A stretch of DNA of 64,000 nucleotides. It comes from Escherichia coli. Lineage in GTDB: Bacteria > Pseudomonadota > Gammaproteobacteria > Enterobacterales > Enterobacteriaceae. Each line of letters opens with the position of its first letter. The stretch's first letter is position 1. The notes below the pieces were generated by a model that ran no database searches, was not told the DNA's origin, and worked only from the letters and a program-made list of their open reading frames with translations. This document shows positions 1 to 6,269 of this stretch, piece after piece. The stretch lies in the NCBI RefSeq assembly GCF_009931435.1, contig NZ_CP043414.1; one strand, written 5' to 3'. The translations under genes and the position numbers were made by a program.

Positions 1-1551
1 CTGTGTGCGATAAGAAAGCGCGGCTGATAACGCTTGTTCCGCCAGATTTCCTCCACCAACGCTACCTGATATTGCATCCCCTGCGGTACCACCACGGTTC
101 AGACCATCGACCTGAATAATCTTAATACCGTCGATAGACTTCATTGGTTCCACAGATTTCTCAATTACCGCAGGGAGCGCCTGCAACAATGCCAGTTTGA
201 ATTTAAGGCTGGTTTGCTCGTCAGAAAGTACGTTGATAGCATCGTTCAGCGCACGTTGCGCTTCTGCTTCCGCCAGGCCTTTTTTACGCGTAGCTTCGGC
301 TAACTCAACGATCGCCGCCGCCTGCATCTCTGCGGCTTCTTTTTCTGCTTTCGCCCGCACGGTCAGTTCAACCGCTTTGGTTTCTGCATCCTGCGCGGCA
401 GCGATTAGGGCAACTTGTTTAGCACGATCGGCTTCTGCGGTCTGGCGAGTGGTTTCTACGTTTTGCTGGGCGCTTACCGCTTCTGCAAGTGCAAGGTTGG
501 CACGCGCTTCCGCTTGTGACTGCTGTTCCGATTTGGCGGCAATAGCGATCGATTTCGTCTGGTTGGCGATTTCGGTGACCTGCTGCTGTTCGATCTCTTT
601 AATGCGAACTTCACGTTCAGCTTCAACTTTTCTGGAACGGACGGCCTGTTCGCGGTCGATTTCCGTTTCCTGAATCTGTCGTTCAGCCAGAATTCGCGTC
701 TGCTCTGCTTCCCGACGACGCTCGGCCTCAAAAGCCGCAATTTTCGCATTCTGCTCAGCGGTACGGGTTTTAACCTGCTGCTCCTGCTCAAGCGTCATAA
801 ACGCTTCTTGCTGTTCAATCTCCAGCTTCCGCGATAGCGCATCACGGTTTTTCTCACGCACCGCAACTTCTACATCTTGTTCAACTTCGTTACGTTCGCG
901 GCGACGGCGCTCCGTCTCCTGCGTCAGCTTGGTTAAACCTTCGGCGTCAAAGGCGTTGTTAGGATTGAAATGTTCTTTCGACGTCTGGTTAAAGTTGGTA
1001 AGTGAAACGCTTTCCAGTTCCAGGCCGTTTTTCGACAGATCTTCAGCAACGGTATTTTGTACGCCCTGCACGAAGTTCTCGCGGGTATCCTGTAACTCAT
1101 GCATGGTCATTTGTGCAGCTGTTGCACGGAGGGCATCGACAAATTTATCTTCAACCAACATACGTAAGTCTTCAGGCGACAGGGTGCGTTGCCCCAGCGT
1201 CTGGGCGGCGGTGGCAATACCTTCCACTGACGGTTTTACCCGCACAAAGAAAGCGACAACGACATCGACGCGCATACGATCTTTCGTAATCAGGCTATCA
1301 ATGGTTGAGCGGCTGACTTCCAGCTTCAGAGTATTCATATTGATGGGGATTATTTCATGAAAGATCGGCATCACGATTGCGCCACCGCTCATTACCACTT
1401 TTTGCCCACCTAAACCAGTACGAACAAAAGCTTGCTCTGCCGAAGCGCGACGATAGAGCCTGGCGAAAATAATTCCAATAATAAACAGAATGCATACGGC
1501 AATAATTGCGGTAAACATCCAGGAGGGCACAGAATTAACAATATCATCCAT
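1..1551 (-). CDS. yqiK: Flotillin/band-7 (SPFH) family inner membrane protein YqiK, partial (C-terminus beyond window start)
   Basis: Minus-strand reading frame starts at ATG 1551 (MDDIVNSVPSW...) with SD aaagga upstream and runs off the window; TM anchor then coiled-coil-rich SPFH-like sequence; follows yqiJ. Confidence 0.8.
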   Translation of the reverse strand, partial: MDDIVNSVPSWMFTAIIAVCILFIIGIIFARLYRRASAEQAFVRTGLGGQKVVMSGGAIVMPIFHEIIPINMNTLKLEVSRSTIDSLITKDRMRVDVVVAFFVRVKPSVEGIATAAQTLGQRTLSPEDLRMLVEDKFVDALRATAAQMTMHELQDTRENFVQGVQNTVAEDLSKNGLELESVSLTNFNQTSKEHFNPNNAFDAEGLTKLTQETERRRRERNEVEQDVEVAVREKNRDALSRKLEIEQQEAFMTLEQEQQVKTRTAEQNAKIAAFEAERRREAEQTRILAERQIQETEIDREQAVRSRKVEAEREVRIKEIEQQQVTEIANQTKSIAIAAKSEQQSQAEARANLALAEAVSAQQNVETTRQTAEADRAKQVALIAAAQDAETKAVELTVRAKAEKEAAEMQAAAIVELAEATRKKGLAEAEAQRALNDAINVLSDEQTSLKFKLALLQALPAVIEKSVEPMKSIDGIKIIQVDGLNRGGTAGDAISGSVGGGNLAEQALSAALSYRTQ

Positions 1552-1577
1552 TATTAAATTTCCTTTTGATTAATAAA

Positions 1578-2207
1578 TTACAATATCTGGGGCCAGGGAT
1601 TGTTTTCCGCCAAATATCGCGTTGCAGAAAGTCGGCAAATAATTAACACTTTGTCTCCTTTAGTGAAAATTTTTCCTTCTTCAGGCTCTAGTAGTAAATA
1701 ATGTATTTGGCCAAATTGATCGGTGAGTTTTCCTTCGCAGGGATTACCTGAAGTGGCCTGATGACCGGTAATGAACGCCATGCTACCAATATATTCTTCT
1801 TCTGTAATAGCTGAACTATGGTCGCGTGGAATCCAGGGCGCAACTATTTTACCGGTATAATGCACCGCAATAATCGTAAACAGTAAACTGACAGGAGCCA
1901 CGAACAGGTTCGAGAGTGGTGATTGCCAAACCATGATGCAGGCATGCTGCAACAGGATGCCAATAAGACCAAAAAAACCAGCCAGTAAACAGAGAACGAC
2001 GAGAGCTGGCAATCTTCCGATATTGAGATAATGAAGTGCCTGGCTAATATGACCTGTGGTTATGGAATCATAATGGTCAAGATGTGCATCAAGAGCACCG
2101 GAGAGCATGTGACCGCAGATAAGCGCAAAAATTTCTAAAAGGCCGATCAACAGTACAAAGGAAATAGCGAAAAGATAAGGGGTGTTATAGTCGGCGAATA
2201 AAATCAT
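1578..2207 (-). CDS. yqiJ: NfeD-like inner membrane protein YqiJ
   Basis: ORF track 209 aa, multi-pass membrane protein; length and position upstream of yqiK match K-12 yqiJ. Confidence 0.8.
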
Positions 2208-2475
2208 ATGTCACTCCAATGTCCATTTAGTGACGCAATATTTACTTTAGGATAGTTTCCTTGCTTACATTTATCTTTGTTAATAATAACACATGTTAGA
2301 GAGGTTCTGGAAGAGAAAGTCTTTTAATATGGTTTTTTATTTTTCACTAAAAAGTGTGATCGGGGACAATATATTTACGCACGTTATGTTTAAAGGCACT
2401 ACACTGATTGGGGAATACTGAAATCAGAAAAAGCATATGGCCTTAAAAGGTATGCGATAACCGGAGGATGTGCTT

Positions 2476-2676
2476 ATGGATCATAGTCTTAATTCTTTAA
2501 ATAATTTCGATTTCCTGGCGCGTAGTTTTGCCAGAATGCACGCAGAAGGTCGCCCGGTCGATATTCTAGCCGTTACTGGTAACATGGATGAAGAACATAG
2601 AACCTGGTTTTGCGCACGTTATGCCTGGTATTGCCAACAGATGATGCAAACCAGAGAACTGGAATTAGAACATTGA
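2476..2676 (+). CDS. glgS: GlgS (surface composition/glycogen regulator), 66 aa
   Basis: Translation [66 protein letters not shown] recognised as GlgS; ATG at 2476. Confidence 0.9.
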
Positions 2677-2680
2677 TATT

Positions 2681-2702
2681 ACGGGCCGTCTGGCCCGTTT
2701 TT
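2681..2702. terminator. Bidirectional stem-loop between convergent glgS and ubiK
   Basis: Inverted repeat acgggccgtctggcccgt followed by T-run. Confidence 0.6.
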
Positions 2703-2710
2703 GTGGTGCT

Positions 2711-3010
2711 TTATTCTGCTTTATCAACCGGCGGGATAGCCGGAGGAGATTGAAGTTCTGCTACCGGATTATTGCGCGCTTCCAGTTCGCTGATGCGTTG
2801 TTCCAGTAACGCCAGTTTTTCACGAGTCCGTAACAGGACTTGCGTCTGAACGTCGAATTCTTCGCGGCTTACCAGATCGAGACGCGTCAACTGCGCTTGT
2901 AGGGTTTGGCGGATTTTTTTCTCCACATCTTCCCCGAACTCCCTGATTCCTTTAGGCATTGATTCGTGAACCTGGCGAGCGATTTGCTCAATTTTTTTCG
3001 GGTCAATCAT
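2711..3010 (-). CDS. ubiK: Ubiquinone biosynthesis accessory factor UbiK (YqiC)
   Basis: ORF track frame; likely start [15 protein letters not shown]...; coiled-coil BMFP-type protein; divergent from ribB as in K-12. Confidence 0.8.
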
Positions 3011-3129
3011 TGTAGTTTCCCTGTACTGATAGGTGTTGAGTGCCATTGTAGTGCGATAAGGGTAAGTCATAAACCAGAATAATGTGAAGCTATGCGTTGC
3101 TGCCGCTAATCATTAGCGTTATAGTGAAT

Positions 3130-3290
3130 CCGCTTATTCTCAGGGCGGGGCGAAATTCCCCACCGGCGGTAAATCAACTCAGTTGAAAGCCCGCGAGCGC
3201 TTTGGGTGCGAACTCAAAGGACAGCAGATCCGGTGTAATTCCGGGGCCGACGGTTAGAGTCCGGATGGGAGAGAGTAACGATTCTGTCGG
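3130..3290 (+). promoter_or_regulatory. FMN riboswitch (RFN element / SroG) in ribB leader
   Basis: Conserved RFN motifs agggcggggcgaaattccccaccggcggtaaat ... cagcagatccggtgtaattccggggccgacggttagagtccggatgggagag directly upstream of ribB. Confidence 0.8.
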
Positions 3291-3383
3291 GCATGGACCC
3301 GCTCACGTTATTTTGGCTATATGCCGCCACTCCTAAGACTGCCCTGATTCTGGTAACCATAATTTTAGTGAGGTTTTTTTACC

Positions 3384-4037
3384 ATGAATCAGACGCTACT
3401 TTCCTCTTTTGGTACGCCTTTCGAACGTGTTGAAAATGCACTGGCTGCGCTGCGTGAAGGACGCGGTGTAATGGTGCTTGATGATGAAGACCGTGAAAAC
3501 GAAGGCGATATGATCTTCCCGGCAGAAACCATGACCGTTGAGCAGATGGCGCTGACCATTCGCCACGGTAGCGGTATTGTTTGCCTGTGCATCACTGAAG
3601 ATCGCCGTAAACAACTCGATCTGCCAATGATGGTAGAAAATAACACCAGCGCCTATGGCACCGGTTTTACCGTGACCATTGAAGCGGCTGAAGGGGTGAC
3701 TACCGGTGTTTCTGCCGCTGACCGTATTACGACCGTTCGTGCTGCGATTGCCGATGGCGCTAAACCTTCTGATCTGAATCGTCCTGGCCACGTTTTCCCA
3801 CTGCGCGCGCAGGCGGGTGGTGTGCTGACGCGTGGCGGCCATACCGAAGCGACTATTGATCTGATGACGCTGGCAGGCTTTAAACCAGCTGGTGTGTTGT
3901 GTGAGCTGACTAATGACGATGGCACGATGGCGCGTGCGCCAGAGTGCATTGAGTTTGCCAAGAAACACAATATGGCGCTCGTGACTATTGAAGACCTGGT
4001 GGCATACCGTCAGGCACATGAGCGTAAAGCTAGCTGA
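3384..4037 (+). CDS. ribB: 3,4-dihydroxy-2-butanone 4-phosphate synthase
   Basis: ORF track 217 aa; sequence recognised as RibB. Confidence 0.95.
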
Positions 4038-4071
4038 AAACCGCTGCTTAATTTACCGCGTTAATCAAGAA

Positions 4072-4104
4072 ACCGAAGCTATTACTGGCTTCGGTTTTTA
4101 TTTT
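4072..4104 (+). terminator. ribB intrinsic terminator
   Basis: Hairpin accgaagct...ggcttcggt followed by tttttatttt. Confidence 0.7.
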
Positions 4105-4299
4105 GCTCTTGTTATGCAAGATGTTAATTCCTCTTCTCTTTCTATGAGAAAATTTCATTAATATCAGGCATTCTTTTCCATTATGATCAAAATCATATAA
4201 TTGTTCCGTTATTATGCGACCATATGAATATATCCGAAAAAGGATATGTGAATTTTATGCGCTAAATGTTTAGTATTGTTAAATATTAAGGGTAAAAGG

Positions 4300-4470
4300 A
4301 TGTTTATCGCCTGGTACTGGATTGTATTGATTGCTCTGGTTGTGGTGGGTTATTTACTGCATTTGAAACGTTATTGTCGGGCGTTTCGTCAGGACAGAGA
4401 CGCACTGCTTGAAGCGCGGAATAAATACTTAAACAGTACGAGAGAAGAGACAGCCGAGAAGGTAGAATAG
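4300..4470 (+). CDS. Candidate small single-pass membrane protein (56 aa)
   Basis: ATG at 4300 preceded by SD aaaagga; hydrophobic helix FIAWYWIVLIALVVVGYLL followed by charged tail; terminator-like hairpin 4487..4517 downstream. Confidence 0.45.
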   Translation: MFIAWYWIVLIALVVVGYLLHLKRYCRAFRQDRDALLEARNKYLNSTREETAEKVE

Positions 4471-4527
4471 GGCTTTAGTGAAGCTGGCAGAAGTTGTCCA
4501 TGCGCTGGACAACTTCTGATGTTGCTT

Positions 4528-5301
4528 TTAACCAATTCCCGCCGTTTGTAGTAGCACTAAACTGAATCCCATCACTGACATTCCACATAGCACGCCATAG
4601 CTGGGGTTATTATTGGGGTCAATCTCTTTAGCTAGCGGCATTAATTCATCAACCGAGAGCGCCACCATAATTCCTGCAACCGCCGCCATGATTGCCGCCA
4701 TGACCACCGGAGAAATCATGCTACCGAGGATTAACCACGCCAGAACACCACCAAGAATTTCTGCCAGCCCAGAAATGCCCGCCCACAAAATTGCGGTGCG
4801 TTTTGACCCCGTTGCCGCGTAAACCGGCCCCGCAACTGCCAGACCTTCAGGAATATTATGCAATGCAACAGCCAGCGCGATGCCAAAGCCCAGCTCCAGG
4901 TTACTGCTCGCCGTGACAAAGGTGGCAATGCCTTCCGGGAAGTTATGCAGACTGATGCCGAGAGTGAGCAGAATGGCTGTGCGCTTGATCGATTTTGGCA
5001 ACGGCTGCACCGATTTTTGCATTAAATCCTGCGGATGCGCATGTGGCAACATGCGGTCCAGACCAAAATAGCCAAGCAGACCGAAGATAAACATTCCATA
5101 ACCCAGCACAGGCGACATTCCTTCGGCGGCTAATGCGGCAGGAAGCATTTCCATTAATGAGATGAGCAACATAATCCCCGCCGCAAATCCTAGCGAAAAC
5201 GCCAGTAAGCGGTTCGAGGGTTTTTGTCCGAGAACGCCGAGAAACGCGCCAATAAACGTGGCTGCCCCCGCCAGTATGGTCAGAATGAGAGGTACTGACA
5301 T
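4528..5301 (-). CDS. zupT: Zinc transporter ZupT (ZIP family), 257 aa
   Basis: ORF track frame; start chosen at [12 protein letters not shown]; processed length matches K-12 ZupT. Confidence 0.9.
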
Positions 5302-6232: not shown

Positions 6233-6269
6233 TAATTACCGGATGGCGAGTGCCATCCGGTATCATGGC

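Follow-up and report, generated by a model that had tools for sequence, protein, structure and literature searches.

E. coli K-12 MG1655 (NC_000913.3) is annotated with the gene order ribB, ubiK, ygiL, yqiG, yqiH, yqiI, glgS, yqiJ, in which yqiG is a pseudogene split by IS2I (insC5/insD5). The ygiL-yqiG-yqiH-yqiI operon was given the name 'Yqi-like' by Wurpel et al. 2013, who found Yqi-like to be associated with phylogroups A, B1, D and E, and Yqi to be common in B2. A preliminary description of the window, the term used here for the whole 64-kb stretch of E. coli DNA analysed, had given the K-12 gene order, including an IS2 insertion in the cluster, and had stated that in the window the fimbrial operon is missing between glgS and ubiK (yqiC). 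The order given there agrees with the annotation of NC_000913.3, where glgS does not lie directly beside yqiC.

Gene layout of the glgS-ubiK region

The window carries, in order, yqiJ, glgS, ubiK, an FMN riboswitch, ribB, yqiD, zupT, ygiD and ygiC, and in the glgS-ubiK region it reads as E. coli. The features around the junction are as follows.

1578..2207, minus strand: yqiJ (209 aa), the conserved left neighbour (ORF; yqiJ annotation in matching E. coli records)
2476..2676, plus strand: glgS (66 aa), identical to GlgS of the WP_001296424.1 type (ORF; glgS annotation at the matches)
2677..2710, no strand: 34-bp convergent spacer, the empty site of the K-12 Yqi-like operon (same or nearly the same spacer length and sequence in cryptic Escherichia and E. 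albertii)
2711..3010, minus strand: ubiK/yqiC, in the ancestral 99-aa form (96 aa in K-12) (ORF; ubiK annotation in matching records)
3132..3280, plus strand: FMN riboswitch, 5' of ribB (Rfam RF00050, 120.9 bits, E 1e-28)
3384..4037, plus strand: ribB (ORF; sequence comparison)

According to the sequence and the list of open reading frames, 2676 is the last base of the glgS stop codon, and ubiK, on the minus strand, has its stop codon at 2711-2713. Between the two lies a convergent spacer of exactly 34 bp, 2677..2710 (TATTACGGGCCGTCTGGCCCGTTTTTGTGGTGCT), close to the separation of about 35 bp that had been claimed. Strains 2017-02-2CC and SK1144 have a GlgS that is 100% identical to that of the window. 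No known RNA was matched by Rfam in the 34-bp spacer, the FMN riboswitch lying further along.

The hairpin in the spacer

One structural feature was recognised within the spacer by folding, a terminator scan and conservation.

2681..2698, plus strand: GC-rich hairpin followed by TTTTTGTGG, predicted intrinsic terminator of glgS

This is the sole hairpin of the spacer and has a 7-bp stem (6 GC pairs) and a 4-nt loop, ACGGGCC-GTCT-GGCCCGT. When folded in a 61-nt context it gave -17.3 kcal/mol on the plus strand (z -2.9 against shuffled controls) and -15.4 kcal/mol on the minus strand (z -3.7). On the plus strand the GC-rich stem-loop is followed directly by a U-run, as expected of a Rho-independent terminator for glgS, and a terminator consensus scan called the hairpin on this strand only. 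On the minus strand the scan called no terminator; the sequence that follows the stem on the ubiK strand is GUAAUAUCA, without a U-run, and with a minus-strand tail of GTAATATCA the U-run on both strands that marks a bidirectional terminator was not found. The hairpin had been introduced as 'one bidirectional hairpin', a wording that holds for the single structure and for the glgS strand but not for the ubiK strand. Bidirectional intrinsic terminators between convergent genes are similar in that one GC-rich hairpin is common to the two genes, whereas in the window the T-run is confined to the plus strand.

In Escherichia, Citrobacter, Salmonella and Trabulsiella alike the stem is conserved without change and the loop varies, and in K-12 the hairpin remains on the glgS side of the island. 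In Citrobacter sp. NCU1 and Awk 4 the same hairpin is symmetric, lying between an A-run and a T-run, and has the look of a truly bidirectional terminator. Going by fold and tail, the window hairpin would serve as a Rho-independent terminator of glgS, and it probably also provides a weaker 3'-end or stop structure for ubiK.

The K-12 operon replaces the 3' end of ubiK

A blastn comparison of window 2300..3100 with K-12 returned two blocks, with breakpoints at window 2705 and 2780. The first block, 2300..2705, spans glgS, the hairpin and the T-run, and the second, 2780..3100, spans ubiK codons 1-77 and the sequence upstream. The segment between them was delimited by these breakpoints and by a comparison of the ubiK tails.

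2706..2779, minus strand: 74 bp without a K-12 counterpart, comprising 5 bp of spacer, the ubiK stop codon and the last 22 sense codons

In place of these 74 bp K-12 has 6,639 bp, or about 5.3 kb when IS2I and its 5-bp target duplication are left out. Because 74 bp of the window have no counterpart in K-12, the K-12 island is a replacement that reaches into ubiK, and not a clean insertion.

The operon that occupies exactly this junction in K-12 is missing from the window. No PapC-type usher, PapD-type chaperone, YgiL subunit or YqiI adhesin is encoded between ubiK and glgS, and tblastn with K-12 YgiL, YqiH and YqiI, together with the usher and adhesin of ExPEC Yqi (EA/I), gave no match at E<=1e-3 in the 64-kb window. 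The preliminary description had proposed a check for usher fragments and target-site remnants. When the window junction was searched for fimbrial remnants, target-site duplications and island-end sequence, by blastn at word size 7 and by blastn-short against the K-12 island, only chance matches of 8-13 nt were obtained. The 34-bp spacer and the absence of tblastn matches thus confirm that ygiL-yqiGHI is not present between glgS and ubiK, and that the window is in the empty state.

Two states of the junction in E. coli

Occupancy of the junction was surveyed, as had also been proposed, in 5,426 complete RefSeq E. coli genomes. An uninterrupted glgS-ubiK junction was found in 2,062 of them (38%), ST131 included, and the K-12-type operon between glgS and ubiK in about 3,320 (61%), always with the same two junctions (ubiK-ygiL in 3,321 genomes and yqiI-glgS in 3,314). 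K-12-type yqiHI at a coverage of at least 80% was present in 3,267 genomes, and under 1% of the sample showed neither the empty nor the K-12-type state. The site is in essence biallelic with fixed junctions, which points to a single insertion event rather than to a hotspot for several cargos. An integration hotspot would be expected to show several cargos, or an integrase, a tRNA or att site, or direct repeats; what was found was a single cargo with fixed ends. The site had been called a 'strain-variable hotspot', of which the variability stands, while the term hotspot overstates the case for one cargo and one pair of junctions.

Two allele classes of K-12-type yqiH-yqiI were seen with the query L001 7882-9697, one at 99% identity or more to K-12 (1,614 records) and one at 90-95% (1,756 records), with most of its identities near 91-93%. 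The divergence between the classes is far above that of the neighbouring core genes, and the split may reflect diversifying selection on the adhesin or more than one import. A few records classed as plasmids carry yqiHI (92.7%) or part of the window sequence directly before glgS; one search gave 52 such places and the other 32, examples being H49 (NZ_AP027475.1, 45 kb) and H30 (NZ_CP154598.1, 32 kb; matching window 2300-2393). These could be mis-binned chromosomal fragments or genuine mobilised copies.

Outgroups and the ancestral state

A GlgS search with one genome per species yielded 27 loci, and wherever ubiK was on the glgS contig it was adjacent and convergent to glgS. This adjacency was present in E. 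albertii, three cryptic Escherichia lineages, E. whittamii, nine Citrobacter, S. enterica arizonae and diarizonae, and three Trabulsiella. The spacers in these outgroups are 28-73 bp long with an invariant CGGGCC/GGCCCG stem and a variable loop, and the UbiK tails carry PAIPPV[DE] in most, shortened to PPV[DE] in E. albertii and Trabulsiella. In E. fergusonii glgS and ubiK are likewise adjacent, with a 169-bp spacer, no operon there and the same UbiK tail. The yqiC gene of S. Typhimurium has been described as convergent to glgS and divergent to ribB (Carrica et al. 2011, PMC3107778), and the Salmonella enterica locus shares the convergent glgS-yqiC arrangement of the window but has a longer spacer, of 73 bp. 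E. coli O157:H7 strain 7.1_Anguil has the same gene order, orientation, 34-bp spacer, hairpin and 99-aa UbiK as the window, from which it departs in point differences only, at 96.7% nucleotide identity across 3.5 kb.

Because all outgroups checked have adjacent glgS and ubiK, the empty state is ancestral and the K-12 operon derived within E. coli. Judged from gene order and sequence, the empty junction of the window is thus taken to be the ancestral enterobacterial arrangement, and not the result of a loss or a deletion scar.

Two of the 5,426 complete genomes matched window 1-24000 at 98.5-98.6% over 24 kb and the rest at about 97% at most, and shorter stretches of the window reached 99.3-99.4% identity to strains 2017-02-2CC and R32_14_1F. 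The window comes from a sparsely sampled E. coli lineage, and the short-stretch identities set against those over 24 kb suggest that this lineage is mosaic. No Clermont phylogroup markers lie in this region.

Three other explanations of the adjacency were weighed. In the first, the operon was once present and the empty allele was regained by homologous recombination from an empty-state E. coli. Blocks of divergence show that the region moves by homologous recombination, and the identity of the window to other strains is a mosaic, 99.3-99.4% over 0.8-3.5 kb and at most 98.6% over 24 kb. However, no positive evidence for such a replacement was seen, two events are needed where one suffices, and empty junctions are common, in B2, in O157:H7 and in 38% of genomes, so that we consider this course of events unlikely. 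A second possibility is that the ancestors of the strain had ygiL-yqiGHI and lost it by deletion, the junction being the scar. Fimbrial operons do decay readily, the K-12 usher is itself disrupted by IS2, and IS-disrupted or truncated copies of the operon occur in other genomes (H61, H175). A deletion would nevertheless have to restore the ancestral sequence precisely, namely the 22 replaced ubiK codons and the 34-bp spacer, the latter being identical or almost identical in cryptic Escherichia; moreover, no island-derived sequence is left at the junction, and at 12 of 13 diagnostic ubiK sites the flanks have the variants of the empty haplotype, shared with B2 and O157:H7. The presence of the ancestral UbiK tail effectively refutes a deletion scar, which we regard as highly improbable. 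Finally, an artefact of assembly or of the window, through a collapsed or mis-joined contig, deserves hardly any credence and is refuted by the same contiguity, annotated as glgS next to ubiK, in 2,062 complete RefSeq E. coli and in all outgroups.

We therefore hold it very probable that 2677..2710 is an intact ancestral junction that contains the glgS terminator hairpin, and that the operon of K-12 is a single derived gain which never reached this lineage. On this account the Yqi-like operon ygiL-yqiGHI would be a derived, low-GC acquisition that entered once, in the ancestor of part of E. coli, and its entry would have replaced the 74 bp that include the ubiK 3' end, homologous recombination in ubiK and glgS being the most likely route. 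The lineage of the present strain would never have received the operon and its junction would be intact and ancestral; the strain would make no Yqi-like fimbriae, and it encodes the ancestral 99-aa UbiK.

Two UbiK tails

The window UbiK is 99 aa long with a proline-rich PAIPPVD tail, and K-12 UbiK is 96 aa long and is devoid of the PAIPPVD motif, which Enterobacteriaceae otherwise conserve. The 77-residue core is identical in the two proteins and the tails diverge from residue 78. The coiled coil of UbiK has been predicted at residues 53-80, or at 49-85 as modelled (PMC9499169), and the point of divergence overlaps its end. With the 77-residue core and a PAIPPV[DE] tail, the window protein has the ancestral form of UbiK (PF04380, BMFP), and not the 96-aa C-terminus of the K-12 type that is linked to the island. 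The PAIPPV[DE] motif was present in 73 of 119 retrieved UbiK clusters, from Kosakonia, Enterobacter, Lelliottia, Citrobacter, Salmonella and E. fergusonii, and the outgroup tails, with the same proline-rich motif, are homologous to the 99-aa tail. The 99-aa allele is found in the window, B2 and O157:H7 and the 96-aa allele in K-12 and Shigella, and the tail allele tracks island occupancy. K-12 UbiK would thus be a 96-aa chimera that arose when the island replaced the ubiK 3' end.

The K-12 tail aligns loosely, as protein, with the common E[VI]K-P-P-IPP pattern, and in its length and in its ENRST...ETLPPTL ends it agrees with the UbiK of the enterobacterium P0022/L031. By these likenesses, the K-12 tail is a diverged homologue of a genuine UbiK tail, and not random read-through. 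In the search with K-12 UbiK, P0022 was the only other genome with a K-12-like tail; it has no island and a ubiK-glgS spacer of 191 bp. P0022 was rejected as the donor, since it has the K-12 base at only 5 of 13 junction-linked ubiK variants and lacks the island. As a separate observation, P0022/L031 (152-846) and L032, from Logan SRR33454298 and ERR3179213, show 77-82% nucleotide identity to E. coli, a 70-aa GlgS and a UbiK tail ending in ..NRSTVTVVKDDQETLPPTL.

Origin of the island

The GC content of the island is 40%, against 49% in the flanks. Neither direct nor inverted terminal repeats of at least 8 bp were found at the K-12 island ends, and the island has no integrase, IS2I being a later arrival. 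A transposon or integrative-element model was rejected on the lack of terminal repeats of at least 8 bp at the island ends. Beside each junction the window is unusually divergent from K-12.

2631..2705, no strand: raised divergence on the glgS side (13 differences in 75 bp, against 1 in the preceding 225 bp)
2780..2895, no strand: raised divergence on the ubiK side (13 differences, all synonymous, and none in the next ~190 bp)

Divergence from K-12 is thus 11-17% in the 75-115 bp beside each junction and then 0-1% for several hundred bp. At 12 of the 13 ubiK sites the empty-haplotype variants are common to the window, B2 SK1144 and O157:H7. These spikes of divergence would be the signature either of co-imported donor flanks or of an old linked haplotype. 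Taken together, the low GC, the absence of repeats, the flanking divergence and the K-12 tail would fit a diverged donor whose sequence entered by homologous recombination, the crossovers falling in ubiK and at the end of glgS. A search for a donor with ubiK-ygiL synteny returned none, and a search with K-12 YqiI outside E. coli and Shigella gave no homologue between 83% and 36% identity.

Neighbouring presence/absence sites

Two further sites in the window are empty where other genomes carry an operon.

4036..4181, no strand: empty second site, between ribB and yqiD, the position of the Yqi/ExPEC-adhesin-I operon elsewhere (comparison with occupied genomes)
6233..6269, no strand: empty third site, between ygiD and ygiC, occupied by assT-dsbL-dsbI in many E. 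coli (ORFs and genome comparison)

ExPEC adhesin I (EA/I) was described by Antao et al. 2009 (PMC2771359) and reported absent from K-12 and O157:H7. The Yqi/EA-I operon of B2 ExPEC and the K-12 type are both four-gene chaperone-usher operons, with amino acid identities of 56% for the usher, 49% for the chaperone and 37.5% for the adhesin. The Yqi/EA-I operon, however, belongs to the site between yqiD and ribB and not to that between glgS and ubiK, and it is missing from the window too. It was found at the yqiD-ribB site in B2 SK1144, E. fergusonii, E. whittamii and Trabulsiella (copies at this site: L003 8731-13703, L035 1950-6918 and L008 4494-9461). Only about 1.3 kb, containing ribB-ubiK, separates this site from the K-12 one, and the operons at the two sites share their orientation. 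Yqi and Yqi-like have been reported as mutually exclusive (PMC3559732). Window 1500..5000, which covers both Yqi-type sites, is contiguous in 1,114 of 5,426 genomes (20.5%), including O157:H7, and the configuration of the window at these two sites is therefore common. The assT-dsbL-dsbI island, where present, lies for instance at L003 3002-6170. The Yqi-like, Yqi/EA-I and assT-dsbL-dsbI sites thus make up three presence/absence islands within about 4 kb.

At 4036-4106 on the plus strand Rfam also gave a weak match to STnc240, an sRNA of enterobacteria (29.8 bits against a gathering score of 55, E 0.21), just downstream of ribB and inside the segment that is replaced by the ExPEC Yqi operon in B2.

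Meaning of the empty junction and of the UbiK tail

The empty glgS-ubiK junction is correct, ordinary and already known, the adjacency of the two genes being annotated in thousands of RefSeq genomes. The strain is without both Yqi-type fimbriae and stands on the ancestral side of a known, phylogroup-linked presence/absence polymorphism. The junction can serve as a marker for typing or synteny but hardly for more, and in itself it matters little.

The one point of some practical value is the UbiK tail, as the laboratory-standard K-12 protein has a replaced C-terminal tail. In the literature searched, no description was found of a coupling between the island and the replaced UbiK C-terminus. We are evenly divided over the fuller proposal that the island came from an unsampled enterobacterial donor and that one crossover fell inside ubiK, which would have given a chimeric UbiK without PAIPPVD in about 61% of E. 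coli and in the Shigella UbiK sequences retrieved. If this is true, K-12, on which all E. coli UbiK biochemistry is based, carries the chimera, and the ancestral protein persists in the window, B2 and O157:H7; the alleles of the tail could then differ in the behaviour of the UbiJ-UbiK complex or in membrane association. Since the tail of K-12 UbiK is a replaced one, the 96-aa and 99-aa forms should not be taken as equivalent when findings on the K-12 protein are carried over to O157:H7, B2 ExPEC or Salmonella.
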